A DNA stretch of 64,000 nt from Ylistrum balloti (taxonomy: Eukaryota): NCBI RefSeq assembly GCF_031769215.1, contig NW_026781978.1, forward strand, positions 744,001 to 808,000, written 5' to 3'. Within the stretch, counting starts at the first letter, position 1. Every line of letters starts with the position of its first letter. Both the position numbers and the translations under genes were made by a program. Positions 44,001 to 63,235 of this stretch are shown here, piece after piece. The notes below the pieces were generated by a model that worked only from the letters and a program-made list of their open reading frames with translations, searched no databases and was not told the origin of the DNA.

Positions 44001-47000
44001 TATTTAAAACTCATTCATAGGGGAAGGGAATCGCCTTACTTTAAAAACTAACAACTCCAGTTGAAAATCAATAACTACATCATAACACTGCCTGTACTTA
44101 ATGATTTTATGAAACCATTTGTTGCCTATGCTTCAGAAACATCACCTCCTTGATGTTATTAAGTATTCTAATGGTATGTATAATGCACAGTAATGTGATT
44201 CTGAATCATTGAATAAATAATTGAGATACTGATTAAATTCAGCATTCAGCTGTTCACATACAATGCCTATTCTTATTTCAATACTGCATATTACTGGGAG
44301 GACAGATCTTATCAGCTTTCAGCAGGTGGACTGAAAGATAATTATCCAATGAAATCAGCTTGATCATGTTTAGAAGTACAATGTGTATCAAACAAAATAA
44401 TATACAATTATAGCCACAAACAACATCTTTATCTTCTGCAATTCTACCTATAAATATCACCCTCATCATCTACAGTTCTACCCACAATCAACACCCTTAT
44501 CATCTACAATCCTACCCACAATCAACACCCTCATCATCTACAGTTCTACCCACAATCAACACCCTCATCATCTACAATCTTACCCACAATCAACACCCTT
44601 ATCATCTACAATTCTACCCACAATCAACACCCTCATCATCTACAGTTCTATCCACAATCAACACCCTCATCATCTACAGTTCTACCTACAATCATCACCC
44701 TCATTATCTACAATCCTACCCACAATCAACACCCTCATCATCTACAATCCTACCCACAACCAACACCCTCATCATCTACAATCCTACTCACAATCAACAC
44801 CCTCATCATCTACAATCCTACCCACAATCATCACCCTTATCATCTACAGTTCTATCCACAATCATCACCAACATCATCTACAAACCTACCCACAAACAAC
44901 ACCCTTATCATCTACAGTGCTACCCACAATCAACACCCTCATCATCTACAATCCTACCCACAACCAACACCCTCATCATCTACAATCCTACCCACAACCA
45001 ACACCCTCATCATCTACAGTTCTACCCACAACCAACACCCTCATCATCTACAATCCTACCCACAATCAACACCCTCATCATCTACAATCCTCCCCACAAT
45101 CAACACCCTCATCATCTACAATCATACCCACAATCAACACCCTCATCATCTACAATCCTCCCCACAATCAACACCCTCATCATCTACAGTTCTATCCACA
45201 ATCATTACCCTCTTTATTTATCAAACTTAACTAAAGTCAATACCCTCATGATCTGTCAACTACTTCCGATCATCAAATATAAAGAATTCATATTCAGAAT
45301 GTGATCTTGACCTTTGACTGATGAATTTCACACTTAAACACCTTCAGAATGCTTCAAAGATAAGCATTTGTGTGCAGAATAACAAAAAAGAAAAAAAAAA
45401 AAAAGAGAGATATCCATAATGAAATCCTAGAATGATGACCAAAAGGTATGACAAACTGAAGAACAAACAGAAGGACAGACAGAACAAAACATAACATCCC
45501 CTGCACAGGTTTTTTGGAAATGTAATCAATAAACTTTTTCTCTTACACAAACTGTACAATTTGCTGATTCACCAGATCCAACTACATGTCTAAAGCAGAA
45601 GAACAGGTCTATTAACATACTAATTAACACTGTGCAGGTTTTCCAGTGATTCCTCTCCAACAGTAGCAGTTATTTATGTCTACGTGGTACATGTACTTTA
45701 CGATACATGCATTCAATTATTGATACTGTATATTAGGCCTCATCGCCAATGATGCTTGACTAAGTTTGTGTTCAATACAGATAACTACAGTTCATCTGTG
45801 ACTTTGGGCAATTCATACTGATAACACTAGCTCAACTGTGATTCATTACACTTATTTACTATATTCATTTTTCAATAAGCATTAGGCATATAGGTTGGTG
45901 GTGGGTTGGTGGTGGGTAGATGATGGGTGGGGGTGGGATGAGAGGATGGGAGATGACAGGTGGGGGCAGGGAATGGTAATACATAAAGTCCCATTCTTTA
46001 TAACAGATGAATGACATAGTATCCGGTAGCATGCTGAAATTCTATTTATAGACATGTGTGGGCTTATTACTATAAAGCATGGACTTATTGCTAAGTGAAC
46101 ACTACCTGAAATTCTCATGTAAGAATCAAACAAAATCATAACTATATGAATGTAGTATACTTCTCTTTCTACTATAATAATAATAACAATTCCTGAAAAC
46201 ACCCTTACTAGCAAGCTACACCTACTATTAAGGCTAGAGGCTGCTTGTAAAAAACCCATAACATTTCTATATTAAGACACTATCCAGATATAGTTAATAA
46301 TTGAATTTTGGATGGATTTTGTCGACCATCTCCATTTTCCACTAGTCCTAATTACAGATTGCCAAGCTGTAGACACATTTGACATTTACAGTATGAAATA
46401 ATAATGGCAATTACCCTACAGGCAATAGGACCATTTAGATTAACTGCCAGTTACAGTGTAAACACAGAGTATTAAAACTGGTCTGAGGCTCTATGGCATT
46501 TCATCAGTGCCTGATTCTGACCATGTTAATAATAGGCCTTGTAGAATTCGTCAATGGTAATGATTCTACATTGAAACAAGGAGTCTTGTAGGTCTGGTCA
46601 ATGGCTATACTGTATGAAGCATAAGGTCTGGAAGGCCTCAGTGATACAATATTAAAGCGAGATCATGAGGTCAGGTGGTAAATGACTTGATTGAAACATC
46701 AGATATTGAGGGTCTTGAGGGCCTCAGTGACAATATATTAAAATGTCGAGTCTGCAGGGCCTCAATGACACAATAATGAAGCATCAAGTCTAGAGGGACT
46801 GGTCAACGAATATATCATTGAATTGAAACTTGAGGGCATGGCCAATGAATATATATTGAAACTTAACATCTTGAGGGCCTTAGTGACACTATATTGAAAC
46901 ATCAAGTCTCAAGGGCGTCAAAGACACTATTGAAACATAAGGTCTTGAGGGCATGGCCAATGAATGTATATTGAAACTTTAGATCTTGAGGGCCTTAGTG

Positions 47001-47906
47001 ACACTATATTAAAATATCAAGTCTCAAGGGCATTAATGAGACAATATTGAAACATAAGGTCTTGAGGGCATGGCCAATGAATATATATTGAAAATTTAGC
47101 TCTTGGAGCCTTTGTGACACTATATTGAAACATCAAGTTTCAAGGGCGTCAATGACACAATATTGAAACATAAGGTCTTGAGGGCATGGCCAATGAATAT
47201 ATATTGAAACTTTAGATCTTGAGGGCCTTAGTGACACTATATTAAAATATCAAGTCTCAACGGCATCAATGACACAATATTGAAACATAAGGTCTTGAGG
47301 GCATGGCCAATGAATATATATTGAAACTAGATCTTGAGGGCCTTAGTGACATTATATTAAAATATCAAGTCTCAAGGGCATTAATGAGACAATATTGAAA
47401 CATAAGGTCTTGAGGGCATGGCCAATGAATATATATTGAAACTTTAGATCTTGAGGGCCTTAGTGACATTATATTAAAATGTCAAGTCTCAAGGGCATCA
47501 AAGACACAATATTGAAACATAAGGTCTTGAGGGCTGCAATTACTCTGCATGTAGTCCGTGACTCTACATTGAAACAAAAGGTCTTTAGATATTGTCAATG
47601 ATTCTGCACCAAAACGTGTGTCACAAATGTAGGCTACATGCTTCAGAAGACAGATATGCTAAAACAATCACAGAACAGTACATTCAGTTTCTCAAAAGAT
47701 AAATGCCACAAGTTTAACACAAAAATCATAAAAGTTAGCACTCAATAAAAAAAGAAGTTTTCAACACATGGGACAGTGATTGATGGACATAATGTATTGC
47801 ATATAGCACCTACTTGTTCTTGGTATAGCACAGTTTTGTCATCGTTGTTGACAGATCCGTAATCATCGTAGGTGTACGTGCCTCCATTCAGCACGTTCTT
47901 CTCCAT
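19997..47906 (-). CDS. ANO7: Anoctamin (TMEM16) family Ca2+-activated channel/scramblase, ANO7-like, whole gene model (21 coding exons, ~877 aa)
   Basis: Manual join of 21 GT-AG exons = 2634 nt with consistent phases. Family motifs: [132 protein letters not shown]. Family is certain; paralogue assignment (ANO7-like) is tentative. Confidence 0.9.
20089..20229. repeat. 40-bp minisatellite x3.5
   Basis: tcaaaatgttaacatttatcaataccgtagtccccctaaa. Confidence 0.9.
20893..21211 (-). mobile_element. Shorter copy of the same LINE 3' end
   Basis: Aligns by eye to 43296-43630; starts at an (ATT/ATC)n tail and reaches the FTVKHFLLD codons. Confidence 0.72.
22938..23417. repeat. 32-bp minisatellite (~15 copies)
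   Basis: aaatatacaaatctgtttatgaagtgaccact. Confidence 0.95.
24140..26240. repeat. 26-29-bp minisatellite family, ~2.1 kb
   Basis: ttggtttgagccttgttgttgacactaac (29 bp) and a shorter gagacttgttgacactaacaaggttt variant. Confidence 0.95.
27521..27553 (-). CDS. ANO7: Anoctamin coding exon 20 (33-nt small exon)
   Basis: tgtgctacag|[11 protein letters not shown]|gtaagt, phase 0-0. Confidence 0.65.
27595..27930. repeat. ~35-bp AT-rich minisatellite
   Basis: aattgtcatatcaaaatgtaaaaaacgatgtaaat. Confidence 0.9.
28114..28245 (-). CDS. ANO7: Anoctamin coding exon 19
   Basis: [44 protein letters not shown]. Confidence 0.92.
28375..28470. repeat. 32-bp tandem repeat x3
   Basis: ctccggacatggagatatattttattctatga. 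Confidence 0.9.
28715..29295 (+). mobile_element. Helentron/HINE-like non-autonomous element with 3-4 tandem ~145-150-bp core repeats
   Basis: Repeated core aacaaagggcaataactctgta...; 3' end ggacaaggcagtgactatatgcttcccc...gggaataaaaa resembles bivalve HINE termini (recalled, not searched). Confidence 0.55.
29365..29910 (+). mobile_element. Degenerate HINE-like element
   Basis: 5' aagaggcc...gtcacctgag and 3' aatgttaaattgtttacgga...ggacaaaggtgatcgcaataggtcacc motifs. Confidence 0.5.
29957..30047 (-). CDS. ANO7: Anoctamin coding exon 18
   Basis: [30 protein letters not shown]. Confidence 0.92.
30955..31088 (-). CDS. ANO7: Anoctamin coding exon 17
   Basis: [18 protein letters not shown]...NGTLNQTC. 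Confidence 0.92.
32023..32228 (-). CDS. ANO7: Anoctamin coding exon 16
   Basis: [36 protein letters not shown]...[11 protein letters not shown]...AVISN. Confidence 0.94.
32209..32355. repeat. 87-bp duplication of the anoctamin exon 16 acceptor region
   Basis: gataaatccaaactgtagca(c/t)tgaaa at 32209 and 32296. Confidence 0.85.
32410..32534 (-). CDS. ANO7: Anoctamin coding exon 15
   Basis: KLKLFIHRL...[22 protein letters not shown]. Confidence 0.92.
33298..33395 (-). CDS. ANO7: Anoctamin coding exon 14
   Basis: [33 protein letters not shown]. Confidence 0.92.
33580..33634 (-). CDS. ANO7: Anoctamin coding exon 13
   Basis: [19 protein letters not shown]. Confidence 0.9.
34685..34796 (-). CDS. 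ANO7: Anoctamin coding exon 12
   Basis: [37 protein letters not shown]. Confidence 0.93.
35213..35408 (-). CDS. ANO7: Anoctamin coding exon 11
   Basis: [15 protein letters not shown]...[12 protein letters not shown]. Confidence 0.92.
35813..36033 (-). CDS. ANO7: Anoctamin coding exon 10
   Basis: [20 protein letters not shown]...EERPRPEY...[12 protein letters not shown]. Confidence 0.93.
36113..36362 (-). mobile_element. Third copy of the same LINE 3' UTR
   Basis: cattatgacattct-aacggcc...aacacataaa...gggccatc...cacaaaagatta...gtcatagtc shared with the other two copies. Confidence 0.7.
37176..37342 (-). CDS. ANO7: Anoctamin coding exon 9
   Basis: [31 protein letters not shown]...[18 protein letters not shown]. 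Confidence 0.92.
37331..37445. repeat. ~26-bp repeat x4 of the anoctamin exon 9 acceptor
   Basis: cacacctcattactgcaaaaacaaaa and variants. Confidence 0.85.
37660..38140. repeat. Nested 79-124-bp repeat of the anoctamin exon 8 3' end and donor, with internal 15-bp sub-repeat
   Basis: gggtaaatggatggacaaagtaatgattactta(c/a)gcaggtgt five times; caggtgtcactgg(g/a)c sub-repeats. Confidence 0.9.
38078..38168 (-). CDS. ANO7: Anoctamin coding exon 8
   Basis: [30 protein letters not shown]|gtaagt. Confidence 0.9.
38455..38620 (-). CDS. ANO7: Anoctamin coding exon 7
   Basis: GPFEVP...[31 protein letters not shown]. Confidence 0.93.
39081..39249 (-). CDS. ANO7: Anoctamin coding exon 6
   Basis: [20 protein letters not shown]...[20 protein letters not shown]. 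Confidence 0.92.
39666..39802 (-). CDS. ANO7: Anoctamin coding exon 5
   Basis: [14 protein letters not shown]...[13 protein letters not shown]. Confidence 0.9.
39915..40535. repeat. 55-bp minisatellite (~11 copies) with degenerate flanking units 39770-40950
   Basis: tctgaaatatagtatctaatcttatccaacctttgtatagtggacagttctcagg. Confidence 0.95.
41071..41178 (-). CDS. ANO7: Anoctamin coding exon 4
   Basis: [36 protein letters not shown]. Confidence 0.9.
41332..41865. repeat. 63/58-bp minisatellite (~9 copies)
   Basis: gtgaccagacatggtcctactgctggctgtggttatcaacatttctgacttaggtttggttgg. Confidence 0.95.
42003..42133 (-). CDS. ANO7: Anoctamin coding exon 3
   Basis: DFILVYEEE...[18 protein letters not shown]. 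Confidence 0.9.
42816..42906 (-). CDS. ANO7: Anoctamin coding exon 2
   Basis: [30 protein letters not shown]. Confidence 0.88.
43296..43830 (-). mobile_element. 5'-truncated I/Nimb-type LINE 3' fragment (degenerate)
   Basis: Minus-strand translation [18 protein letters not shown]...[34 protein letters not shown] (C-terminal CCHC of I-group ORF2, two stops), then a 3' UTR and (TAA/TGA)n tail. Confidence 0.8.
44455..45205. repeat. 34-bp C/A-rich minisatellite (~21 copies)
   Basis: acccacaatcaacaccctcatcatctacaatcct. Confidence 0.95.
46560..47535. repeat. ~39-bp monomer array resolving into a ~117-bp trimeric higher-order repeat
   Basis: acataaggtcttgaggg recurs at 46935, 47052, 47168, 47285, 47400, 47517. 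Confidence 0.92.
47814..47906 (-). CDS. ANO7: Anoctamin coding exon 1 (exon spans 47814-47952, so a 5' UTR exon lies further upstream)
   Basis: [31 protein letters not shown]|gtaggt; acceptor ttttctaccag| at 47953. Confidence 0.65.
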
Positions 47907-48214
47907 TATGGTAATGAGGTTAGAAGATCAGGGAACCCTCAGTCACCTTGCCCTGGTAGAAAATACAGACAGTTATAACACAACAAAGCATGGTTCACAT
48001 GACAGTTCATACAGTGTACACAATTTATCTAAGTTAAGAGAGCATCAACATCCTGGCGAGCTGTGATCAGAATGATGACCGATGGCTTAGTCTAAACACT
48101 GAAACCATAAAGATACTACAGATACCAGATGTTGCTGTTTCATTAAAGTTTTTTCTGATAGTCGCATGTCTATATGTAGCTTTGATGATTAAAGTTGGGT
48201 ACCCATCATAGATT

Positions 48215-49545
48215 TCTACCAGTAGACTGACAGACCGTGGTAATGTGAAAGGTTACTACTGGTAGACTGACAGACCAAGGTAATGTGAAAGATTATTACT
48301 GGTAGACTGACAGACCATGGTAATGTGAAAGATTACTACTGGTAGACTGACAGTCCATGGTTATGTGAAAGAATTCTACTGGCAGACTGACAGACCAAGG
48401 CTTTGTGAAAGATTTCTACTAGCAGACTGACAGACCAAGGCTTTGTGAAAGATTTCTACTAGTAGACTGACAGACCAAGGCTTCGTGAAAGATTTCTACT
48501 AGTAGACTAACAGACCAAGGCTTTGTGAAAGATTTCTACTAGTAGACAGACAGACCATGGTCATGTGAAAGATTTCTACTGGTAGACTAACAGACCAAGG
48601 TAATGTGAAAGATTTCTACTAGTAGACTGACAGACCATGGTCATGTGAAAGATCACTACTGGTAGACTGACAGACCAAGGCTTTGTGAAAGATTTCTACT
48701 AGCAGACTGACAGACCAAGGCAATGTGAAAGATTTCTACTGGTAGACTGACAGACCAAGGTAATGTGAAAGATTTCTACTGGTAGACTGACAGACCATGG
48801 TAATGTGAAAGATTACTACTGATAGACAGACAGACCAAGGCTTCGTGAAAGATTTCTACTGGTAGACTGACAGACCAAGGTAATGTGAAAGATTACTACT
48901 GGTAGACTGACAGACCAAGGCTTCGTGAAAGATTTCTACTGGTAGACTGACAGACCAAGGTAATGTGAAAGATTACTACTGGTAGACTGACAGACCAAGG
49001 CTTTGTGAAAGATTTCTACTAGCAGACTGACAGACCAAGGCTTTGTGAAAGATTTCTACTAGTAGACTGACAGACCAAGGCTTCGTGAAAGATTTCTACT
49101 AGTAGACTAACAGACCAAGGCTTTGTGAAAGATTTCTACTAGTAGACTGACAGACCATGGTCATGTGAAAGATTTCTACTGGTAGACTGACAGACCAAGG
49201 TAATGTGAAAGATTTCTACTAGCAGACTGACAGACCAAGGTAATGTGAAAGATTTCTACTAGTAGACTGACAGACCATGGTCATGTGAAAGATTACTACT
49301 GGTAGACTGACAGACCAAGGCTTTGTGAAAGATTTCTACTAGCAGACTGACAGACCAAGGCTTTGTGAAAGATTTCTACTAGTAGACTGACAGACCATGG
49401 TCATGTGAAAGATTTCTACTAGTAGACTGACAGACCATGGTCATGTGAAAGATTTCTACTAGTAGACTGACAGACCAAGGCTTTGTGAAAGATTTCTACT
49501 AGTAGACTGACAGACCATGGTCATGTGAAAGATTTCTACTGGTAA
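48215..49545. repeat. 40-bp minisatellite (~33 copies)
   Basis: ctactggtagactgacagaccaaggtaatgtgaaagattt. Confidence 0.95.
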
Positions 49546-51471
49546 ACCACTGTTTACTCAAAATACTGATATGAAAAAAACATTTTAAGTGAAATGTCCG
49601 TATAATCAATTGACCTATATTTATGTGACCTTATCATCCTTAGAGTAGGAACATGGAACAATTTTCCTATTACAGTGTTCCTCATATAAGCCAAATTTTT
49701 CTCATCATACCAAATATACTGGTCAAATGTTTCTTAATTCAGCATTCCCCATCATACCAAGTATATCATCTTCTCATGTCGCATATCAATGATGAAATTT
49801 ACCATATAGTTTTACGATTGCCAATTATCCGTTTCAAGTTTATATTGTGTGCTCTGTTACCAAAATTCTATGTCTAATACATTTCACATGGAAACATATT
49901 AACAGTGTTATTAGATTGAATACAGTATACAGAGAGACAGTCAGTCAGTCTTCAAAGACATGAACATGAAGAGGAATGTTAACTTTATCAGAATGTCAGT
50001 CTGTGGTTAAGATACCAATACATAATGTCAGTAGGCAGATTCTGAATATGATTGTTTCGGTAGGTTTAACTAAATAGGAATTGTTCGATGAACAATATAC
50101 AATCCTAGAACTAATCTGGGGGGAAATTTACAGCCCACGATTACAGCTACTTGGACCAATCCAAGTAGCAGTTTGACCTTTCCCTAGTGGGCTGTAATGA
50201 CTGAAATTACTGAAACTCTAGCAACGTTCTACTCCTACAAACCACGACCAATATTGCATTTGGTTTAATAATGGTGTAGCTAGCAGCTTTCTGGATTACA
50301 ACCTGAAGTCATATGGACATAACATCACAATTACTGTTTACTCATTTTCTACTGTGCACCATTTATCATTAATTATTTTGAAATCAGAACAATTTTTTTT
50401 AAAAGTTATTTATCACAAAAAAAGATGGAGTGATGGACAAATATAACAAATTAGTTTTCATAATTATTTTAGGATGGGATAAAATTTCAGAAATCAGACA
50501 CCTTGAAAATTCTTTGTCTTTGATAAAACGTATTAGCTGGTGTAACAGGTTTGGCTTTGATAATAATGGGTTAGCTGGTTTAACAGGTTTTACTTTGATA
50601 AAGAAGAATTAGTTGGTTTAACAGGTTTGGCTTTGACAGTCTCATAATTGTTTATAGTACTTTTTTGATGTCTTTGGATCACTTTGTAATCACCACAACA
50701 AACAAGATTAGTCTGGTCACTATGTAACTTTGCATTTGCTACTGGTATGCAAAATACACATCAAACCTACAAAAGAAAATTGATCTATCCGTGCATATTT
50801 TTTCATTTTAATTCACATGTAGATATATTTTTTTCGACTGTGTGTCATAACACTGAAGCATTGATCCTTGCATACTATGTGCCTTGTTGTATTGTTTTTG
50901 TGATAGGTTTTACATTTATGTACATTAGTTGCATTGCGTAGAAATGCAGAATATATATAGCCATCTGTTACATAGGATACTGCCACAGCTGGCTGAGCTT
51001 TCCAAGTGTCCAGGCAATTATACTACTGTCAAAGATTTCATCAGCATCCTATCTTCATCCTACAACTGATGCAGTGACAAACACAGTGTTATCACCTTTA
51101 TCCTCTCTATTACCTCCCCTTCAAAGTAAGGAATTAGTCACTATTGCTTTTTATAACCCTGGAAGATTTCAAGACAAAATTGAAGATTCCGTGTGCGACA
51201 ACTTGTGTATTAGACAAGAAAACTAGTTTGATCCTTTGATGTACATCAACGAAGCATTAAATTATGTTGTACTGGCTTTGAAGTTTGGTGTCATTCCTTT
51301 GTAATCTTCAAAGGAGCACACCAGTCTGTAATTGTTCAGTTTTTTCTCCTGAAAACCACTCTAGACGGTTAAATAACTTCACTTGAGCCTTCAATTCTCC
51401 CATGTAATATTCCATGGATGTAGAAGTGAGCATAACCACTTCGCTGACCTTCTCATATTGGTATTAGTACC

Positions 51472-52142
51472 CTATCCTATCTCATGAGCGACTGATCAAT
51501 TACCTTCCCTCATCTCACCAGACATGTCCCATCCCTATCTCATGTGTGACTGATCTATTACCTCCCCTGATCTCACCAGACACACCCCATCCCTATCTCA
51601 TGTGTGACTGATCTATTACCTCCCCTGATCTCACCAGACATATCCCATCCCTATCTCATGTGTGACTGATCTATTACCTCCCCTGATCTCACCAGACACA
51701 TCCCATCCCTATCTCATGTGTGACTGATATATTACCTCCCCTGATCTCACCAGACACACCCCATCCATATTTCATGTGTGACTGATCTATTACCTCCCCT
51801 GATCTCACCAGACACACCCCATCCATATTTCATGTGTGACTGATCTATTATCTCCCCTGATCTCACCAGACACATCCCATCCCTATCTCATGTGTGACTG
51901 ATCTATTACCTCCCCTGATCTCACCAGAAATATCCCATCCCTATCTCATGTGTGACTGATCTATTACCTCCCCTGATCTCACCAGGCACACCCCATCCCT
52001 ATCTCATGTGTGACTGATCTATTACCTCCCCTGATCTCACCAGACATATCCCATCCCTATCTCATGTGTGACTGATCTATTACCTCCCCTGATCTCACCA
52101 GACATATCCCATCCCTATCTCATGTGTGACTGATCTATGACC
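51472..52142. repeat. 58-bp minisatellite (~11 copies)
   Basis: catgtgtgactgatctattacctcccctgatctcaccagacacatcccatccctatct. Confidence 0.95.
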
Positions 52143-53229
52143 TGATCACCTCAGACAGAAGTTTGTTTTTTTTTCCAAATCTTAACACTTCTTGCTTGAA
52201 TTAACAAAGAGGTGATTTAACTGATCTTATCATAACCATTTCAGTAGAGCATGGAGTAGTAAAATATTCATAACTCAATGTACCATCAATCTTATACCAA
52301 TAACATACATAGGACACAATGACATCAGTGTCTCCAAGTACATCTTACAACAAAAACTGAAATATTTTCATTTTTAGGGTGAATGTTTCTATAAAGCCTT
52401 AAAATCAAGTTGCAACCACTTCAGAAATGCCACCAATATAAGTGAATGTACAACGAATGGACAAAGTCAGTTATGTAGTAATTGATTCTTTCCATTGTTG
52501 AAAGTTTGTTGGTTCTATCCCTTGTTGGAAATTATATAATTTGGTCAAAGCATTAGGATATTAACAACTTTAACCTGGATGCAATATCATAAGGATATAC
52601 ACAGAAACTGGAAAAGAAGTCAGATACAAAGTACTGAAGGTGATTCGAGGGCTGGATCATATTATACAAAAGAGGTACTGAGACTGGATTAAATGTAGAA
52701 GGTATAAGGGCACACATTTAGGTAACATGTATGTCATGGGTAAGTGGACGTTAACAAAATGAGCTAGACTATAACGATGTAGACACAGTGATCCTGCATA
52801 ATGAGAGTATATCATGGATGATAAAAAATTTCCAACTCCCTTATCAAAGTGAATCTTTTACATTAAAGCACTGAACCAGATAATTTACTGTAACACTAGG
52901 CAAAGACACAGACACATACCAAGTCAGGATCACAATGGCTGCATTGTGTTTTATGTATATCATTGTACCACAAATATTTCAAAGCAAAAGCAGAGGTATT
53001 TTCTGAGGATTGTTTTTATGATGTTAGGAACCTTGATGTTATTATGTTTCTCTGGCTTTCCTTTTTTTAAGCAAGTTGCACATGGGTCCTTTGTTGTTTG
53101 TCTGGATATTTCAGCTTTCACTTCAGCACATTTTCATTTATACAGTTATAATGTTATATTTTCCGCTTAAGATAAGGAATTTCAAATCTTCAAACTAAAT
53201 TTAGACACCAAACCTTCATCCATTTTGAA

Positions 53230-53457
53230 AGAGAGTGATTTAAAACTCTTCTGTCCCCATATTGAATACTGTACATCTACAGAACGTCAATTTACATTAA
53301 ATTAAGTCCCTACCACCGAAGATAATTGGTCAAAATACTTTCATAGCAACAACAGAAGACGGATCTCACAGATCACATTTTATCAACTCTATTCAGCCAT
53401 ACCCTCAGACAACACACCATGGCATAAGCTCACCTGTTCTGCAGGTGAACTAAACCT
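53230..53457 (+). mobile_element. HINE-like 3' remnant with terminal hairpin
   Basis: ccatggcataagctcacctg-ttctg-caggtgaactaaa terminal stem-loop. Confidence 0.5.
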
Positions 53458-54094
53458 TACATAAACTATGAGGAAATTTCTATGCGTGATGGGATTGTGA
53501 TCAGATAATTGCTAATCTATCTAGTAATTGTTTTATAAATGTGTGGAAATTGACTGTAATTTTTCATTATTAATTTTCTTTAACTTATTGTTTATCTGTG
53601 TGTACTTTTGCAAAAATAATTTATATCAATCTATATAAATTGCCAATTAATTCCTTTCTTATGCCAACATGTTTCATCAAAGTATCATGTTGGGCCTCAA
53701 AATTAAATTCCATGTAGAGGTTGGACTATTGAAAGCAATGAAATAGTTTTTTGTTAGCCTTATTACTGAACAGTAATAAACATGATGGCCTTATTACCAG
53801 ACATAGGCTTAATGCCAGAAAGATAAGTAAATGTAGCATTTTGATATATGAATACTACAAATATAAAATGTGACAGCAGTGGGAATTCAATAATATGTAT
53901 TCCCTACAAAATTTCAACACATGGTCAGCTGTTCTTCTAATCTCCTAACTGCAACAGATATTCTGATTCAATTACACAAAATACATGCATACCAAAACAT
54001 TATACATTTTGTAACAAAGGCACCCAGGTGGTTTATATGTTTTGACCTGATCTTCAAAGCCACCTCTTAAACTAAGCAATTTTTAATCCATAAA

Positions 54095-55149
54095 TTTGTC
54101 AGTATACTGTAACCTGGTATACAAACACACCTGCAAGTAATCAATTAATTTGTCAGTATATTGTAACCTAGTGTACAAAGACACCTCATATGAATCCAAT
54201 AATTTGTCAGTATACTGTACCCTAGTGTACAAAGACATCTCTGCAGAATCAATTAATTCATCAGTATATTGTAACCTAGTGTACAAAGACACCTCGTATG
54301 AATCCAAAAATTTGTCAGTATACTGTACCCTAGTGTACAAAGACACCTCTGATCAATCTAATACATTATATGTAATTTGTCAGTATACAGTAACCTAGTG
54401 TACAGACACCTCGTATGAATCTATTATTTTGTCAGTATACTGTAACCTAGTGTACAGACACCTCGTATGAATCTATTATTTTGTCAGTATACTGTAACCT
54501 AGTGTACAGACACCTCGTATGAATCTATTATTTTGTCAGTATACTGTAACCTAGTGTACAGACACCTCGTATGAATCTATTATTTTGTCAGTATACTGTA
54601 ACCTAGTGTACAGACACCTCTAATGAATCTATTATTTTGTCAGTATACTGTAACCTAGTGTACAGACACCTCGTATGAATCTATTATTTTGTCAGTATAC
54701 AGTAACCTAGTGTACAGACACCTCGTATGAATCTATTAATTTGTCAGTATACTGTAACCTAGTGTACAGACACCTCGTATGAATCTATTAATTTGTCAGT
54801 ATACTGTAACCTAGTGTACAGACACCTCGTATGAATCTATTATTTTGTCAGTATACAGTAACCTAGTGTACAGACACCTCGTATGAATCTATTAATTTGT
54901 CAGTATACTGTAACCTAGTGTACAGACACCTCGTATGAATCTATTATTTTGTCAGTATACAGTAACCTAGTGTACAGACACCTCGTATGAATCTATTAAT
55001 TTGTCAGTATACTGTAACCTAGTGTACAGACATCTCGTATGAATCTACTAATTTGTCAATATACTGTAACCTAGTGTACAGACACCTCGTATGAATCTAT
55101 TAATTTGTCAGTATACTGTAACCTAGTGTACAGACACCTTGTATGAATC
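54095..55149. repeat. 52-54-bp minisatellite, left part (~20 copies), interrupted by the gypsy element
   Basis: ttgtcagtatactgtaacctagtgtacagacacctcgtatgaatctattatt. Confidence 0.95.
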
Positions 55150-56082
55150 TGTGACGATTTTATTCAGTTAGAGTTATCTCCCTTCATGTAACGTTTTGTA
55201 TACGTCCTGTTTTGTATCATTCCCCACCTACCTAATTATTTTAATTATCGATGATTGACTTATGTTTTCATGAAACTAGTGTTTACTAAATGTGTAATCA
55301 TACCTGTATAAATAAATAAAAACATTTGTCTTGCGTATTTGTGGGTTTTGGTGCTGTATTAATTGAGAAGGAAAATACTGGAGACACCCAGAATAATACA
55401 TAAGATTTTATGTAAATACTGGTTGAAACCAGTAAACAAAAAAGAAGATTTTGACAGACGGAAGAAGGTCGGCTATATCACAGGTAATAAAGTATTATAG
55501 CACACAGTTCAATTATACTGTTACCAGAAGCTCCTGAGTAAGGGGTTGCCTGAATAAGGCAGCTCTGGTAACAGTTATTGTTACGTGTGGTCGGTGCCAG
55601 TACGTTGACGTGTCAGGTACGCCAGAATCTCCTGAAAAGGGGTTGCCTGCAAAGGCTACTCTGGTACGCCTGACTACTGATACAGTACTTGGCACAACAC
55701 TTTGTACTGTGATAATAACAGGACACTGGCAGGCGACGTCGGAGCTGTACGGTGGTCGGCTCAGTAATAAGGGACGTGCTTGCAGTGTTGTAGTGCTGAC
55801 AGTCTGTTAGTGTTGCGGTGTGTGGTAGCCTTGTTGGGCAACATACGCCTAGGCGACGTGATACGTACCGCGGACACATTGTTGGCTCGTGTATGGTGAC
55901 ATGGTGGACAGAGGTACTGTCCTTCTCTGTTGTAGTGTATAGATATATTGTTTATTAAATTGAGTAATTGTTCAACTGCTCAGCCAGGTAGCTGAGGAAT
56001 TCCAATCGCTTCCGGAGCAGGTAGCTCTGTCTAAATTGAGAGACCCGGCGTGCACGCGCGCTACCATAGGGTGCACGTTACA
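55150..56082 (+). repeat. 5' LTR (933 bp)
   Basis: TGTGACG...CGTTACA; direct repeat of 62212-63144 at offset 7062; no difference seen by eye; ORF track gives identical translations for both copies. Confidence 0.97.
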
Positions 56083-56088
56083 TTTTAA

Positions 56089-56106
56089 TGGTGGCAGCGG
56101 TGGGAT
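56089..56106 (+). promoter_or_regulatory. Primer-binding site complementary to the tRNA-Leu 3' end
   Basis: TGGTGGCAGCGGTGGGAT is the reverse complement of ATCCCACCGCTGCCA+CCA, the 3' end of animal tRNA-Leu(AAG/TAG type); lies 6 nt after the LTR end. Confidence 0.9.
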
Positions 56107-56151: not shown

Positions 56152-59100
56152 ATGGAGGATATCAACAAGACCATAGAGGAGCTGGAGGCCCGCATCGCAT
56201 CATATGGTGTAGGACAGAAACCAGGAGATGGTCCAGCCAGGCACTCGACTCCGAGGAGTACTACCACGGTGGTATTAGACGAGAAAAACACAGCTGACTC
56301 CGGGATAGTGACTGTGCGCAGTTCAGATGTTGATTCTGGTGGTGGTCTGGGGCAGAGTTCGAAGGATGCTGCTGACCTACATACTAAGCTTGTACAGTTT
56401 AGCCCGCAGACACCAGACATGGACAGATACGGAAATAATACTGGCGACGGGTTGTCACAGGAGCGACAAGGTCCCTTGTCCGATCACTACTGGCAAGAAT
56501 CTGTATCTAGTAAACCACTGAGTCGACCAAAGTATTGGTATGATGACGGGACATACCAACCGCGCAGCAAGTGTTCAGACACAAACGAAGCAAAGACCAG
56601 GCGAACACCATCATTTAATATCAAGCCTGCAACCTACGACGGCAGTGGGTCATGGTTGGACTACAAGGCCCATTTTGAATCGTGTGCTGCATTGGCAAAT
56701 TGGACCGAGGAGGAGAAGGGGTTGTACTTAGCTGTTTCCCTCAGGGGCCAGGCACAAGGAGTACTCGGTAACCTCCCAGGTGGACCATTGAAGAAATATA
56801 GGGACCTGGTATATGTTCTCAGTGAACGGTTTGCTCCACCAAACCAGACTGAACTCTATCGTGCGCAGCTACGAGAAAAGCGGCAAAAGGCGACCGAGTC
56901 ATTACCGGAGCTGGGACAAAGTATACGGAGGCTAGCGAATCAAGCATACCCGACCGCACCATCCGATGTCATTGAGGTACTAGCAAAAGAACAGTTCATT
57001 GACGCCTTGATAGACTCGGACATGAGATTGCGGATTAAACAAGCCAGACCAGCTAGTCTCAATGAAGCTATACGCCATGCCGTTGAATTGGAGGCCTTCA
57101 TCAAGTCAGACCAGAAACACAGGGAGTCGCAAGGGTTCTTAAGGCCCATAGCTCAGAAGGAGGCTAATGACCAAGAAACTGATCAGGGAATGAAAGCATT
57201 GACTGCAGTTATGACTGAGATACAAGAATCCCTGGCAGGCCTAAAGACCCAAGTAGCAGACTTGGAGTCTAAACAGCGCAATTGGCGACCAGCACCTAAA
57301 TTCCGTAACAAAGGTACTGACGGTAAATGTTTCAATTGTGGTGAAAAAGGCCATTTTCAAAGGAATTGCCCGGAGACGAGAAAGGATAACCAGCAAGGTA
57401 ATAAGAAAGGAAAAGCCAATGGTGCGAAAAAGAAAGAGCAAGCTGGTGTGAATAGACAAGCTGGGGAGCCAGGAATTTATGTTAATGTGGAGATCCATGG
57501 AGTAAAAGGAAAATTTCTAGTGGACACGGGGTCGACTTTGTCGCTGGTATCTGAATGTTTGTTCACGGCAATATGCAGTCGAGATAGGTATCAGCATCCC
57601 TTGACAAAGGTGCCCCGCGACATTTTGTCTGCGAATGGAGAACCACTGATAGTAAGCGGTCATACAGTGTTACCAGTATTAATTGATAACCACTTGTACA
57701 AGAAGGGACTGGTGGTAGCCAGACTATCAGTAGACGGAGTCCTTGGGTTGGACTTCATGAACGAGGAAAAATGCGTTGTCGATGTGGTGAAACGGAAACT
57801 CGCAATTGGACAGCAGGAGGTTGAGTTGCTCAGTGAGGGAAGAATAGGTTGTTATCGTGTGGCTGTTGCTGATACTCTTAACATCCCCCCAGAATCTGAG
57901 ATGGTTACCTATGGACAGGTCATTCTTCCTCCTGGTACCGCTGTGCCCAAGGGTGTTAGCATTATCGAACCTGCACCAAAATTCCTGGATACTGATCGAG
58001 CTTTGGTAGGAAAGACTTTGGTCAGCAATAGTGAAACAGTCCCATTGCGAATTATGAATGTATCTCCAGATGTGAAAGTGGTGCATGCAGGGACGGTTGT
58101 GGGGTCTCTCACACCGATAGACAGTGTTATGTCTTGTGAAACAACCAGCAAAGAAAAAGAGGCTCTAACTCCGGTACTTCAAGATCTGTTAGACAGGACC
58201 AGTGAAGGGCTAACTAGAAATCAAGTGAAGCAGGTACGCGCATTGTTAGTTCGACATTCCAATGCCTTTGCAAAGGATAATCAAGACATTGGAAAAACCG
58301 GTGTCGTGAAACATTCAATCAGCGTTGGTGATCATCCACCGGTAAAACAACCCCTTCGGAGGCTTCCGGTTCATGCAAAACAAGCCGTAGACGAGCATAT
58401 TGATGATATGTTGGACAGGGGGATAATCGAACCTTCAACTAGTCCTTGGTCGTCTGGTGTCGTCCTCGTAAAGAAGAAGGATGGGAGTACCAGATTTTGT
58501 GTGGACTACCGGCGCCTTAATGACGCAACCATCAAAGACGCTTACCCTTTACCAAGGATTGATGAATCCCTTGACCAGCTGTCTGGAGCATGCTGGTTCT
58601 CTACCCTCGATTTGTGCTCCGGATATTGGCAAGTCGAGCTGGAGGAGGGAGATAAACCAAAAACTGCTTTTTCGACCAAACGTGGCCTTTATCAATTCAA
58701 GGTAATGCCGTTCGGGCTGTGCAACGCCCCGGCTACGTTTGAAAGGCTGATGGAAACCGTGTTGCGGGGACTGCAGTGGGACATCTGCCTCATATACCTT
58801 GACGATGTGATTGTCACTGGGAGAACTTTTGGAGAAATGTTAAGCAATCTGGAGAAGGTACTTCAGCGTTTGTCAGCTGCCGGTTTAAAACTAAAAGCGA
58901 AAAAGTGTACGCTGTGTGCTAGAAATGTTGAGTTCCTTGGACATATTATTTCGCCTGAAGGAGTTTCCACAGACCCTGGCAAGATACAACTAGTGAAGGA
59001 TTGGCCAGAACCAACAACTGTAACTGAGGTCCGATCATTTCTTGGACTGTGCGGCTATTACAGGCGGTTCGTCAAGGACTTCTCTGCCATCGCCAAACCA

Positions 59101-61239
59101 TTACATCGGCTTACAGAAAAACACAAACGTTTCATATGGACTAAAGAGTGCCAAGAAGCCTTTGATTGCCTCAAAGCAAAGCTGTGCCAGTCCCCGATAT
59201 TGGCATACCCAGACTTCACTAAACCATTTGTGCTCGACACAGATGCAAGTGACCTTGCTATAGGAGGTGTACTTGCCCAAGTCCAGGATGGACACGAGAG
59301 AGTTATTGCATACGCAGGTCGAACACTGTCAAAGTCAGAGAGGAAATACTGTGTTACAAGGAAAGAGTTGCTCGCCGTTGTCTTCTTTGTCAAGTATTTC
59401 CGCCATTACTTGTATGGAAAACATTTTCTCCTTCGTACAGATCACAGTTCCCTGCGTTGGCTCCTAAATTTCAAGAACCCAGAGGGCCAACTTGCAAGAT
59501 GGTTGGAAGTTCTGAGCATGTATGACATGAAAATCGAACATCGACCAGGATCCCAACACTCAAATGCAGACGCACTTAGTAGGCGACCTTGTCGGAAGTG
59601 TAAGTTCAATCCTGAATGGGACAAGGTAACAAAACTGTCTGTTGGTGGCTTGACAGAGACTGGGTCTAGCAAACAAGAAGAGTCCGACAGGCAACAAATT
59701 GAAACCGGGGGAAAATCCTTGTCAATGCTCCAGAAAGAGGATCCAGATATTATGTTAGTTAAGAAGTGGGTAGAAGACACTACCAAACCAAACACCAAAG
59801 ACGTGCACATGGGTGGTGTAATGGTGAAGTCCCTTTGGTCACAACGGGATATGTTGATAGTCGCGAATGACATACTGTACCGCAAATGGCAAGACTCTAA
59901 AGGCAAAACGTTGCAAGCGGTTGTACCAATGACTGAGCGAAGGAGCATATTGAAGATGTGTCATGATCATCGGACCTCTGGTCATCTGGGAGTAAAGAAG
60001 ACCTTGAGCAAGGTAAGACAAAGCTTCTTCTGGCCTGGTCTACAGAGAGATGTGAGACAATATATAGCAGGCTGTGAAGTGTGCTCAAGAAAAAAAGGGC
60101 CGATGAAAACTCCGAAAGCACCTATGCAAGTAGTTGGTGCCGGTATGCCCATGGAAAGGATAGCAACCGACATACTTGGAGATTTGCCATTGACTAGCAA
60201 AGGGAATCGTTATGTATTAGTAGTGTCTGACTATTTTACGAAATGGACTGAGGCATTTCCAATGCCAGACATGACTGCAGGGACCGTGGCTGATATCATT
60301 GTTAGAGAGGTTGTCACTAGGTTTGGCGTACCAACGGTGATACACTCGGATCAGGGAAAACAGTTTGAGGGACAACTCTTCTCACAAATGTGCGAGGTAT
60401 TGCACATCAAAAAGACTCGAACCACTCCCTACCATCCGGAGGGAGATGGTATGGTTGAGCGGTTCAATCGTACGCTGATTTCCATGCTGGCTTCCTACGT
60501 CAATGACCACCACACGGACTGGGATGACCATCTGCCTTTTGTTACTATGGCATATAGATCTGCAGTTCACGAAACTACTGGCAGTAGCCCTAACGCCCTT
60601 ATGCTTGGTAGGGAAGTATCAACGCCACTGGACATTATGTATGAGCTACCCCAAAACGCAAAGAAAATTCCAACAAACCAATGGGCTTGGGACCTAAAGG
60701 AAAAAATGGAGACAGCTCATGCTCATGTCAGAAAGCATACAAATGCAGAAATGCTACGACAAAAGATCTGGCACGACCAAAAGCTCAGCTGGCAAACCTT
60801 CTCGGCTGGAGACCAGGTCTATGTTTACTTCCCGAGGTATCTACCAGGCCGTTCTTCAAAACTTACAAGTTATTGGAGAGGACCATTTGAGGTAGTAAGC
60901 AGATGTTCAGATGTCACCTACAAGGTACTGTGTGGGACTCGCGGTGCACCACAAATAGTTCATGTAGATCGCATGCAACTGAAGAAAAGACAAGAGCTAA
61001 CAGGCGAGCAAACATCGGACACAGGACCGATGAAAGGTACCTCAGAACCTAAGGAGGGGGAGGTCAAAGACACAGGACAAGGTCCCCAAACTGTTAGGGA
61101 TGATATCATACCCCGTACCTCTGGGGATGATTGTGAAATCGTCGAGGCGAGTGAGGGCGAATGGGGAAACCCATTCACGTCCCGACGTACGAGACGGCCA
61201 CCCCGCTGGCTGGCCGAATATGTTACTAATTTTGATTAG
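56152..61239 (+). CDS. gag-pol: Gag-Pol polyprotein (capsid, CCHC knuckle, aspartic protease, RT, RNase H, integrase), 1695 aa, single uninterrupted frame
   Basis: Gag KPATYDGSGSW...; CFNCGEKGHFQRNC; PR LVDTGS; RT FCVDYRRLN and YLDD; RH LDTDASD; IN HHCC (HDHRTSGHLG...CEVC), DILG / HSDQG / VERFNRT, and GPY/F (WRGPF); no chromodomain seen. Confidence 0.97.
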   Translation: MEDINKTIEELEARIASYGVGQKPGDGPARHSTPRSTTTVVLDEKNTADSGIVTVRSSDVDSGGGLGQSSKDAADLHTKLVQFSPQTPDMDRYGNNTGDGLSQERQGPLSDHYWQESVSSKPLSRPKYWYDDGTYQPRSKCSDTNEAKTRRTPSFNIKPATYDGSGSWLDYKAHFESCAALANWTEEEKGLYLAVSLRGQAQGVLGNLPGGPLKKYRDLVYVLSERFAPPNQTELYRAQLREKRQKATESLPELGQSIRRLANQAYPTAPSDVIEVLAKEQFIDALIDSDMRLRIKQARPASLNEAIRHAVELEAFIKSDQKHRESQGFLRPIAQKEANDQETDQGMKALTAVMTEIQESLAGLKTQVADLESKQRNWRPAPKFRNKGTDGKCFNCGEKGHFQRNCPETRKDNQQGNKKGKANGAKKKEQAGVNRQAGEPGIYVNVEIHGVKGKFLVDTGSTLSLVSECLFTAICSRDRYQHPLTKVPRDILSANGEPLIVSGHTVLPVLIDNHLYKKGLVVARLSVDGVLGLDFMNEEKCVVDVVKRKLAIGQQEVELLSEGRIGCYRVAVADTLNIPPESEMVTYGQVILPPGTAVPKGVSIIEPAPKFLDTDRALVGKTLVSNSETVPLRIMNVSPDVKVVHAGTVVGSLTPIDSVMSCETTSKEKEALTPVLQDLLDRTSEGLTRNQVKQVRALLVRHSNAFAKDNQDIGKTGVVKHSISVGDHPPVKQPLRRLPVHAKQAVDEHIDDMLDRGIIEPSTSPWSSGVVLVKKKDGSTRFCVDYRRLNDATIKDAYPLPRIDESLDQLSGACWFSTLDLCSGYWQVELEEGDKPKTAFSTKRGLYQFKVMPFGLCNAPATFERLMETVLRGLQWDICLIYLDDVIVTGRTFGEMLSNLEKVLQRLSAAGLKLKAKKCTLCARNVEFLGHIISPEGVSTDPGKIQLVKDWPEPTTVTEVRSFLGLCGYYRRFVKDFSAIAKPLHRLTEKHKRFIWTKECQEAFDCLKAKLCQSPILAYPDFTKPFVLDTDASDLAIGGVLAQVQDGHERVIAYAGRTLSKSERKYCVTRKELLAVVFFVKYFRHYLYGKHFLLRTDHSSLRWLLNFKNPEGQLARWLEVLSMYDMKIEHRPGSQHSNADALSRRPCRKCKFNPEWDKVTKLSVGGLTETGSSKQEESDRQQIETGGKSLSMLQKEDPDIMLVKKWVEDTTKPNTKDVHMGGVMVKSLWSQRDMLIVANDILYRKWQDSKGKTLQAVVPMTERRSILKMCHDHRTSGHLGVKKTLSKVRQSFFWPGLQRDVRQYIAGCEVCSRKKGPMKTPKAPMQVVGAGMPMERIATDILGDLPLTSKGNRYVLVVSDYFTKWTEAFPMPDMTAGTVADIIVREVVTRFGVPTVIHSDQGKQFEGQLFSQMCEVLHIKKTRTTPYHPEGDGMVERFNRTLISMLASYVNDHHTDWDDHLPFVTMAYRSAVHETTGSSPNALMLGREVSTPLDIMYELPQNAKKIPTNQWAWDLKEKMETAHAHVRKHTNAEMLRQKIWHDQKLSWQTFSAGDQVYVYFPRYLPGRSSKLTSYWRGPFEVVSRCSDVTYKVLCGTRGAPQIVHVDRMQLKKRQELTGEQTSDTGPMKGTSEPKEGEVKDTGQGPQTVRDDIIPRTSGDDCEIVEASEGEWGNPFTSRRTRRPPRWLAEYVTNFD

Positions 61240-61340
61240 TTAGAGTACCAATAGTATTCTTGTATTCCTGATTTTGTAAGTTGTGAACCATTTTCATACA
61301 TCATCTGAATCCTTTCTTCCCTTTTTTGTATGTTGTAGAG

Positions 61341-62057
61341 ATGGTGAAGACAAAGACCACTCACAGGAAGGAACAGAAATGTCCCATGTGTGCATTCACT
61401 AGTGTAGATATTGAAAGGATGAAGGAGCATATTCTCATGTGTGGTCTGAAGGAAATGGAGAAGAAATCCTTCGTATGTGAAGAATGCCCATTTGCTACCA
61501 CCTCGGCAAGCAATCTTCTCCGGCACACGAAGAGAAGACACAGTGTAGAACAGACGGCACAGCCGGGACCCTCACGTGAAGGAGGTAGCTATTCTACAGT
61601 GAGAGAGGAGGAAGACTCGTGGAAAGACAATGACCCTGGTGATCTTGCTAGCATCCTAGGTGATGTGTCGGACTCTGACAATGGGGAAGACCATGATGAG
61701 TCTGCTGCTGGCGAGGAACCTGATGTAGAGGCCATCCCTGATCCAACGGTGAGGAAGCATACACGGCCAGATCAAGTGTTCACCCCTAAACGGGCGCCAG
61801 AGAAATTGAGTCCCAAGGATCCCAGGAATTGTATCCCACAGAAAGTCCCAAGGGTAGAGAGGCCTCCTACCAATCTCCATCAGGTTCCTAGGGTGTCAAA
61901 GGCGATGGCGAGTGTGTCTACTCAGACAAAGCCAGTTATAGAGAGGCATGTGGTCTGGAAAACGACAAGGTACACAGAAGGAGATAGGGAAATCGAGCTG
62001 GTTGAGATGCATGAGACGGAGACCTCCTGTGGTGTATGCGGACTGTTAGATGATTGA
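61341..62057 (+). CDS. Retrotransposon accessory ORF2: C2HC + C2H2 zinc-finger protein with acidic region and TQT motif (238 aa from ATG 61341)
   Basis: Open frame between the pol stop and the PPT; C-x2-C-x12-H-x3-C (CPMC...HILMC) and C-x2-C-x12-H-x4-H (CEEC...HTKRRH); the ORF track starts it at TTG 61326, first ATG is 61341. Confidence 0.82.
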   Translation: MVKTKTTHRKEQKCPMCAFTSVDIERMKEHILMCGLKEMEKKSFVCEECPFATTSASNLLRHTKRRHSVEQTAQPGPSREGGSYSTVREEEDSWKDNDPGDLASILGDVSDSDNGEDHDESAAGEEPDVEAIPDPTVRKHTRPDQVFTPKRAPEKLSPKDPRNCIPQKVPRVERPPTNLHQVPRVSKAMASVSTQTKPVIERHVVWKTTRYTEGDREIELVEMHETETSCGVCGLLDD

Positions 62058-62198: not shown

Positions 62199-62211
62199 AA
62201 GGAGGGGGAAG
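62199..62211 (+). promoter_or_regulatory. Polypurine tract
   Basis: AAGGAGGGGGAAG abutting the TG of the 3' LTR. Confidence 0.9.
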
Positions 62212-63144
62212 TGTGACGATTTTATTCAGTTAGAGTTATCTCCCTTCATGTAACGTTTTGTATACGTCCTGTTTTGTATCATTCCCCACCTACCTAATTA
62301 TTTTAATTATCGATGATTGACTTATGTTTTCATGAAACTAGTGTTTACTAAATGTGTAATCATACCTGTATAAATAAATAAAAACATTTGTCTTGCGTAT
62401 TTGTGGGTTTTGGTGCTGTATTAATTGAGAAGGAAAATACTGGAGACACCCAGAATAATACATAAGATTTTATGTAAATACTGGTTGAAACCAGTAAACA
62501 AAAAAGAAGATTTTGACAGACGGAAGAAGGTCGGCTATATCACAGGTAATAAAGTATTATAGCACACAGTTCAATTATACTGTTACCAGAAGCTCCTGAG
62601 TAAGGGGTTGCCTGAATAAGGCAGCTCTGGTAACAGTTATTGTTACGTGTGGTCGGTGCCAGTACGTTGACGTGTCAGGTACGCCAGAATCTCCTGAAAA
62701 GGGGTTGCCTGCAAAGGCTACTCTGGTACGCCTGACTACTGATACAGTACTTGGCACAACACTTTGTACTGTGATAATAACAGGACACTGGCAGGCGACG
62801 TCGGAGCTGTACGGTGGTCGGCTCAGTAATAAGGGACGTGCTTGCAGTGTTGTAGTGCTGACAGTCTGTTAGTGTTGCGGTGTGTGGTAGCCTTGTTGGG
62901 CAACATACGCCTAGGCGACGTGATACGTACCGCGGACACATTGTTGGCTCGTGTATGGTGACATGGTGGACAGAGGTACTGTCCTTCTCTGTTGTAGTGT
63001 ATAGATATATTGTTTATTAAATTGAGTAATTGTTCAACTGCTCAGCCAGGTAGCTGAGGAATTCCAATCGCTTCCGGAGCAGGTAGCTCTGTCTAAATTG
63101 AGAGACCCGGCGTGCACGCGCGCTACCATAGGGTGCACGTTACA
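62212..63144 (+). repeat. 3' LTR (933 bp)
   Basis: Same sequence as the 5' LTR; directly preceded by the PPT. Confidence 0.97.
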
Positions 63145-63235
63145 AATCTATTATTTTGTCAGTATATTGTACCCAAATGTACAAAGACACCTCTGCAGAA
63201 TCAATTAATTTGTCAGTATATTGTAACCAAGTGTA
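63145..63235. repeat. Right-hand continuation of the 52-54-bp minisatellite
   Basis: aatctattattttgtcagtatattgtacccaaatgtacaaagacacc resumes the unit exactly at the TSD. Confidence 0.9.

Follow-up and report, generated by a model that had tools for sequence, protein, structure and literature searches.

A Ty3/Gypsy LTR retrotransposon of Ylistrum balloti carries, after pol, an accessory gene (ORF2) that does not encode Env and that is conserved and selected in a bivalve Gypsy lineage. The place of the gene after pol, purifying selection on it, its histone H3-like N-terminal tail, its zinc fingers, its LC8-type motif and the splice-acceptor-like site just before its start were all observed. In the reading that we prefer, and to which we give a probability of roughly 45%, ORF2 would be an LC8-dimerised chromatin anti-silencing factor of its own element, made from spliced RNA. 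The element lies in a window of 64,000 nucleotides, by which we mean the whole stretch of DNA analysed, and is composed of the following parts:

55146..55149, + strand: target-site duplication (TSD), 4 bp, second copy at 63145-63148
55150..56082, + strand: 5' LTR, TG...CA, 933 bp, 0 mismatches to the 3' LTR
56089..56106, + strand: primer-binding site (PBS), with the same motif 3' of the LTR in relatives
56152..61239, + strand: gag-pol, a single 1695-aa frame with gag, CCHC, protease, RT, RNase H and integrase (Pfam)
61341..62057, + strand: ORF2 accessory protein, 238 aa, an intact open reading frame between pol and the PPT
62199..62211, + strand: polypurine tract (PPT), ending one base 5' of the 3' LTR
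62212..63144, + strand: 3' LTR, 933 bp

Everything expected of a Ty3/Gypsy element is present, namely the LTRs, PBS, PPT, TSD and the order protease, RT, RNase H, integrase. The PBS is presumably of the tRNA-Leu type, and no tRNA gene was found within the 64-kb window. ORF2 starts 101 nt past the gag-pol stop and ends 141 nt 5' of the PPT. Searching the 648 Mb of the same genome returned 33 ORF2 matches, eight of them at 99-100% identity; six of these eight near-identical copies were retrieved whole, with their own LTR pairs 99.0-99.9% alike, an open gag-pol frame of about 1700 codons in five of the six and an own matching TSD in three. The family of the window's element is thus young and amplifying with ORF2 intact. 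The insertion site itself is a 52-nt tandem repeat (54217-55149 and from 63145 on), and positions 45000-55000 are filled by further tandem arrays with units of 34, 40, 54, 58 and about 116 nt. Elsewhere in the genome, two element copies about 7.0 kb apart apparently use a common LTR (G000:C48:399500-417500), and three tandem copies without ORF2 follow each other at a spacing of 7.7 kb (C310:266500-287100).

Homologues of ORF2 were gathered in an alignment of 46 rows (A2), which are 24-83% identical to the window's protein. When 1.84 billion representatives were searched with a profile, 150 matches were listed, from which 40 short proteins matched along the profile were retained and 110 multi-finger proteins, matched in their fingers only, were excluded. 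The nearest homologs that carry a species name come from scallops. We looked up 30 clusters: 13 bear the names of bivalves (Mizuhopecten, Pecten, Argopecten, Pinctada, Ostrea, two Saccostrea species and Mytilus), 16 name no organism and one names a Ca. Thiodiazotropha MAG, whose ORF2 homolog we infer to be host DNA. Multi-copy RefSeq models of oysters and scallops called 'RE1-silencing transcription factor-like' or 'HIVEP3-like' (clusters P0051, P0118, P0075 and P0003) belong to the same family, and such 'REST-like' and 'HIVEP3-like' models are likely retrotransposon ORF2s rather than host genes.

The earlier, sequence-only reading of the window had proposed to ask whether homologues always sit between pol and the PPT and evolve at a dN/dS below 1. 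An integrase with 45-100% identity to that of the window lies at most 1.5 kb upstream, on the same strand, in 20 of the 30 retrieved ORF2 loci (two rows being one place); the other 10 rows correspond to six places, five of which are internal deletions of such elements and one of which is preceded by protease and RT. No ORF2 locus from another species was confirmed in viral, metagenome or prokaryote contig collections, so that for other hosts the position is taken from gene models in which the end of pol is fused to ORF2 (P0163, P0203 and P0235). Between the window's family and a decayed sister family, the one pair compared, dN/dS over 237 codons of ORF2 is 0.31 and over 429 codons of integrase 0.26, and the short motifs of ORF2 are conserved at about 30% overall identity.

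One deletion derivative, which occurs also in the runs of a related species, joins gag-protease in frame to ORF2 via an 8-nt microhomology, and its ORF2 part looks unconstrained (19 non-synonymous versus 3 synonymous differences). Neutral decay, which the earlier reading had named as an argument against its proposal, is seen in this derivative but not between the two families compared. Several other internal-deletion derivatives retain all or part of ORF2 (L092, L011-L014, L089, L046, L021 and L088). Decay of this kind, as well as the loss or reduction of ORF2 in some relatives described below, would be expected if the gene were a non-functional passenger or a one-off captured host fragment. 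Such an origin is nevertheless highly improbable in view of the dN/dS between families, the conserved motifs and the 40 homolog clusters, with scallops, oysters, pearl oyster and mussel among the hosts.

The distribution of the gene among relatives was followed on an integrase tree of 40 rows, taken from the same genome and, for one row, from a metagenome (L015 was dropped as too short), on which we assigned the ORF2 types ourselves. All carriers of a full ORF2 fall within one 17-row clade (support 100/99), made up of 11 rows with a full ORF2, one with a partial one, four with a 'mini' form and one with none (L123); by our count, ORF2 is lost or reduced in five of the 17. The mini family (L108-L111; L119) keeps, right after pol, a remnant of about 54 aa in which the LC8 motif, the hairpin and a patch of basic residues remain; it has at least four copies, and L108 has an intact gag-pol frame of 1688 aa. 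This family and the ORF2-less L123 imply that tail and fingers are either dispensable in cis or supplied in trans. In the sister clade (four rows; joint support 98/96), ORF2 has two fingers and the hairpin, along with Arg/Ser-rich stretches and an LC8 motif of Gln-Cys form, but it lacks the H3-like tail; judging from these sequences, that tail is confined to one integrase clade. Nature thus offers variants with the tail, without it (sister clade) and with the LC8 motif and hairpin only. The 3' ORFs of sister-clade and outgroup loci (L117, L120-L122 and L128) combine C2H2 fingers, Arg/Ser-rich repeats and a similar C-terminal hairpin, and an H3-like tail is missing from all of them. Among the more distant loci, 7 of 21 have a different C2H2 ORF after pol (six by profile, one by eye), and zinc-finger 3' ORFs are therefore widespread in this part of Gypsy. 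Distant Gypsy families of the same genome (L131-L134, L136, L147 and L138) have unrelated-looking ORFs after pol, mostly of the C2H2 kind, that of L138 exceeding 660 aa.

ORF2 is a small, motif-rich protein whose tail, QT motif and fingers can each be tested separately. Its features are these:

61344..61370, + strand: histone H3(1-9)-like tail, aa 2-10, 5/9 identical in the window copy
61380..61442, + strand: C2HC zinc finger, aa 14-34 (Cys/His pattern, conservation, AlphaFold2)
61476..61541, + strand: C2H2 zinc finger, aa 46-67 (Pfam PF13909 above cut-off; 37/46 members match)
61620..61646, + strand: Trp...Asp-Pro-Gly motif, aa 94-102, in the acidic region (W94, D98, P99 and G100 in at least 90% of rows)
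61752..61769, + strand: Arg-Lys-x-Thr-x-Pro motif, aa 138-143 (R138 and P143 in at least 90% of rows)
61908..61931, + strand: LC8/DYNLL-type binding motif, aa 190-197 (family conservation; predicted complex model)
61941..62024, + strand: predicted beta-hairpin, aa 201-228 (AlphaFold2; retained in the sister clade and the 54-aa mini ORF)
62028..62039, + strand: terminal CxxC, Cys 230/233 (subfamily-specific, 8/46 members)

Most of this anatomy had been described in the sequence-only reading and stands. The intact 238-aa frame between the pol stop and the PPT is confirmed at 61341-62057, and the view that it does not encode Env holds, because a hydrophobic segment is absent from every family member (peak 19-residue hydropathy 0.58 in the window's protein; 0/46 members above 1.6). 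All residues of the C2HC finger (C14-C17-H30-C34) are where that reading had put them; the finger is a weak Pfam match, with C34 invariant and C14, C17 and H30 kept in at least 90% of the 46 rows. The residues of the C2H2 finger (C46-C49-H62-H67) are likewise in place, and its match to zf-H2C2_5 scores 29.6 bits against a cut-off of 27. AlphaFold2 models both fingers at block pLDDT values of 87-96 and places a beta-hairpin, such as that reading had predicted, at 201-228. The terminal CxxC had also been noted correctly for this copy, but it is not a general feature of the family. Residues 85-238 gave no match in the ESM Atlas, Foldseek with the ORF2 model returned weak zinc-finger matches only (none at E<=0.001), and a PDB sequence search found C2H2 fingers only. 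A ZNF512-like assignment (ESM Atlas 0.93; 120-153 shared features across the matches listed) was discarded as generic finger likeness. An H3K36-like reading of aa 138-143 was rejected, as K36 is not the best H3 window and the best window is expected about 0.12 times by chance, and a CtBP-type reading of the Asp-Pro-Gly motif was dropped as a poor fit.

Neither the N-terminal tail nor the acceptor-like site had been noticed in the sequence-only reading. Residues 2-10 of ORF2 align with residues 1-9 of the histone H3 of the same genome, gap-free and in register. A start could be called in 44 of the 46 rows; in these, T3 is kept in 33, K4 in 37, T6 in 37, R8 in 21 and K9 in 28. At position 1, 37 rows have Val, Ala or Pro, and Arg2 occurs in none, Lys (18) and Asn (15) being found there instead. 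Identity to H3 1-9 is at least 5/9 in 20 of the 44 starts and at least 4/9 in 28, whereas 0 of 107 control N-termini reach four matches, 8 of 128,441 control 9-mers reach five and 1 of 128,441 equals H3 in its fit to the family columns; these figures concern a likeness noticed post hoc, in a Lys/Thr-rich tail of one family origin that was itself part of the search profile. Mean identity is 3.8 in register versus 0.5-1.4 when shifted. A stricter rule for the start (36 rows) gives the same picture, with K4 in 31, six rows below three matches and a small residue after Met in 34 of the 36 clear starts, and three representatives that lack the tail have cluster mates that carry it. Since third codon positions vary among families, the constraint on the tail acts on the protein.

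Many PHD fingers need Arg2. Readers of unmethylated K4, several of which belong to repressive complexes, can recognise as many as nine residues, R8 and K9 among them, and in the case of DNMT3L Arg2 stays exposed (PMC3241642). A tail with T3, K4 and T6, and often R8 and K9, in the absence of Arg2 fits such readers, the DNMT3L type included, by analogy with these known cases, and it is because they span nine residues and the DNMT3L type leaves Arg2 exposed that the tail may be regarded as a decoy. The published class of H3 tail mimics (H3TMs, iMet-Z-R-X-K) is defined by Arg2 (PMC8166343), and ORF2, H3-like as it is, is therefore no member of it. The same requirement bears on the opposite direction of effect, in which ORF2 would be a self-limiting repressor whose tail recruits NuRD/LSD1-type complexes and restrains its own element or rival ones. 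Unmethylated H3-like N-termini of zinc-finger factors (SALL, FOG and BCL11) do bind NuRD (PMC8166343), and a transposon-silencing complex of the fly is dimerised by LC8 via near-identical motifs (PMC7919418). However, the NuRD-binding host motifs have the Arg2 that is found in 0/44 ORF2 tails, and the window's family is amplifying with its ORF2 intact (8 copies at 99-100%), so that we consider repression improbable.

Dimerisation through LC8, the second component of the anti-silencing reading, rests on the motif at aa 190-197. LC8 has clients such as ASCIZ and the rabies P protein. The sequence ASVSTQTK lies where the sequence-only reading had reported it, SVSTQT beginning at aa 191 (nt 61911), in a region of low AlphaFold2 pLDDT (aa 180-193). 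A lone TQT is expected about 0.05 times from the composition of ORF2; one copy alone proves little, and the weight therefore rests on conservation in the family. An LC8-type anchor is found within the last 80 residues in 42 of 46 rows (1000 shuffles: mean 12.8, maximum 22), whereas the strict TQT is found in 16 (shuffles: mean 1.9, maximum 8), so that the motif class noted earlier is upheld and the strict TQT form is not general. At position -1 of the Gln anchor, Val occurs as often as Thr, or VQT more commonly than TQT. Ser or Asp stands at -4 in 32 and Asp or Glu at +2 in 31 of the 42 anchored rows, the window copy having Lys at +2; these choices agree with published LC8 preferences (PMC6607443) and with the LC8 sites of Panoramix (PMC7919418).

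A 2:2 complex of ORF2 aa 178-230 with LC8 from the same genome was modelled, and it scored 0.86 against 0.09 for the best control, with a tool whose calibration excludes peptides and disordered chains. Among microbial pairs, the mark for the score was reached in that calibration by 51 of 78 solved and 2 of 108 mismatched ones; among eukaryotic pairs, it was reached by 39 of 65 solved and 2 of 126 mismatched ones. Contacts agree between runs to at least 98%, the partner has a pLDDT of 64 or more, and the interface residues 187-199 occupy the canonical groove. LC8-peptide complexes have been structurally solved many times over, and the score is for that reason (possible model memory) to be read as likeness and not as binding. 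Dimerisation of ORF2 by host LC8 is, on this basis, predicted. The genome contains six clustered, intronless and near-identical LC8 genes (G000:C143:209846-249013, L031-L036) and, on C1052, two divergent ones. In P0163, P0156 and L015, the C-terminal tail of the integrase has an LC8-type Thr-Gln-Val motif as well, the window's integrase being without one.

The same motif would serve another purpose if ORF2 connected particles or pre-integration complexes with chromatin or with LC8/dynein, thereby steering nuclear entry or targeting. Such a helper of trafficking or integration would account for the fact that the mini ORF of 54 aa has kept the LC8 motif and the hairpin, and for the LC8-type motifs in the integrase tails of some relatives. 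For clients of this type, however, LC8 is a dimerisation hub rather than a cargo adaptor (PMC7919418), and an ORF that is separate and has an acceptor-like site of its own does not have to be packaged; we regard this role as quite improbable. The anti-silencing reading takes LC8 as a dimeriser, and it further depends on how ORF2 is expressed, for which four features of the element are relevant:

55481..55489, + strand: candidate splice donor within the LTR (55483 would be the last exonic base), 7/9 match to the donor consensus
55517..55575, + strand: predicted three-way-junction RNA hairpin 1 in the LTR (z -6.2; similar loops in four other families)
55610..55675, + strand: second, related three-way-junction hairpin (z -4.5)
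61310..61338, + strand: splice-acceptor-like site made up of a polypyrimidine tract and TAG, 2 nt 5' of the ORF2 ATG

By a rule that was fixed only after the sequences had been viewed, a pyrimidine tract with YAG lies 1-5 nt before 11 of 12 family starts; the corresponding figures are 59 of 988 for other ATGs and 47 of 1080 for spacer positions. Donor-like sites lie near the hairpin stem in 5/5 LTRs examined, where the background is 25-51% of windows. Transcripts covering ORF2, whose lack had been named as a point against the gene, are present in four runs, all contig-only and three of them belonging to a relative that is about 95% identical; of the 20 joints, the 15 listed include none that connects LTR and acceptor, and one contig reads through the acceptor-like site unspliced. 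The joint 57897>61338, the one listed that enters ORF2, was rejected as a splice, given its non-GT-AG ends, its 8-nt microhomology and its existence as genomic deletion derivatives.

The LTR hairpins would offer a different target for a dimeric finger protein. As a regulator of the Rev/CERV kind, ORF2 would, once dimerised by LC8, bind unspliced element RNA with its fingers and aid its export or limit its splicing, the possible target being the three-way-junction hairpins just past the candidate donor, with the tail a side feature or localisation signal. The acceptor-like site implies a balance between spliced and unspliced RNA; stable hairpins with similar loops are found in the LTRs of five families, each near a donor-like site; Arg/Ser-rich stretches occur in sister-clade ORF2 and in an outgroup ORF; and CERV provides a precedent (PMC10309623). 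Yet the strict hairpin pair was found in only four, and a single loop in a fifth, of the 13 full or partial A-type loci scanned, a similar loop (by eye) in a family that lost its fingers fits a Gag packaging signal equally well, Rfam gave no matches for the window's LTR, and the register-exact likeness to H3 is left unexplained. We consequently hold this role in RNA regulation to be possible but doubtful. The hairpins may be a packaging signal or a protein-binding RNA element. In the LTRs of L083, L084, L085 and L086 and of the window, which are otherwise unalignable, they stand in tandem with similar purine-rich pentaloops, which to us are reminiscent of lambda boxB.

The H3-like N-terminus and the acceptor-like site together lead, within the preferred anti-silencing reading, to a narrower mechanism. 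Translated from a spliced RNA, ORF2 could begin at its own Met, which the small residue that follows suggests is removed, and the tail would be exposed. Host LC8 would then dimerise the protein, creating a predicted assembly of four fingers and two H3-like tails which, being probably nuclear, could be placed by its paired fingers on the element's own DNA or nascent RNA. There the tails may act as decoy or bait for readers of the histone H3 tail, and the element would likely escape silencing. Put in its most specific form, and tentatively, an old bivalve-wide lineage may encode an LC8-dimerised mimic of the H3 tail that titrates or redirects H3K4-sensing silencing on its own chromatin.

When compared with known systems, ORF2 first invites comparison with Env. 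In errantiviruses, env is the ORF between pol and the PPT. Env and the sORF2/fusogen ORFs have in common with ORF2 the slot between pol and the PPT and an acceptor-like site upstream, whereas the signal peptide or transmembrane segment of an Env-type third ORF is absent in 46/46 ORF2 members. Histone mimicry is documented in viruses and host proteins, and in the literature searched we found no case of it by a retrotransposon. The full-text-searchable literature, Repbase, Dfam and subscription journals aside, contains no description that we could find of ORF2, of a retrotransposon-encoded H3 mimic or of a retrotransposon-encoded LC8 client, in keeping with the impression of the sequence-only reading that its architecture was undescribed in LTR retrotransposons. 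The main text of a mollusc LTR survey has no occurrence of 'ORF' or 'zinc' (PMC6238403), that of a bivalve TE survey none of 'zinc finger', 'C2H2' or 'accessory' (PMC10294476), and additional ORFs are mentioned in general terms only in the accessible part of a further paper (PMC8220671).

Among host proteins, the H3TMs (VRK1, PCLAF/PAF15, BCL11, SALL, FOG and HIVEP1) resemble ORF2 in being H3-like right after a removable Met and in having Lys4, and several of them are zinc-finger chromatin factors, as ORF2 would be (PMC8166343). They differ in that they are host-encoded and have Arg2, whereas ORF2 belongs to a transposon, usually has Lys or Asn at this position and, unlike them as far as that source describes them, matches H3 further along, at T3, T6, R8 and K9. 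With LC8 clients such as Panoramix, ORF2 has in common a QT/QV-anchored motif, present once or twice per chain, in disorder beside a possible self-association element; Panoramix, however, is a Drosophila host silencer of transposons, and in ORF2 the putative client is encoded by the transposon itself (PMC7919418).

The silencing of transposons by the host is well studied, and element-encoded counter-measures are, to our knowledge, barely known in animals, VANC belonging to plant DNA transposons. CERV of the C. elegans element Cer1 is, like ORF2, a non-Env accessory protein of a Gypsy-type element; it is the nuclear product of a spliced RNA, with a cysteine-rich region and a predicted multimeric state, splicing and nuclear location being only probable for ORF2 (PMC10309623). 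CERV has 517 aa, exons in common with gag and domains resembling H, M and G proteins, an architecture unlike the two fingers, disorder and hairpin of the ORF2 model. In the accessible portion of that report, no likeness to ORF2 in sequence or domains was seen, and no C2H2 pair, LC8 motif or H3-like tail is reported for CERV (PMC10309623). As regards function, a parallel is VANC of Arabidopsis transposons, whose anti-silencing activity has been shown and which counters the epigenetic silencing of its own family (PMC5735166). This is the role proposed here for ORF2, with no homology claimed, and if the proposal is true, ORF2 would represent counter-defence by an animal retrotransposon through histone mimicry.
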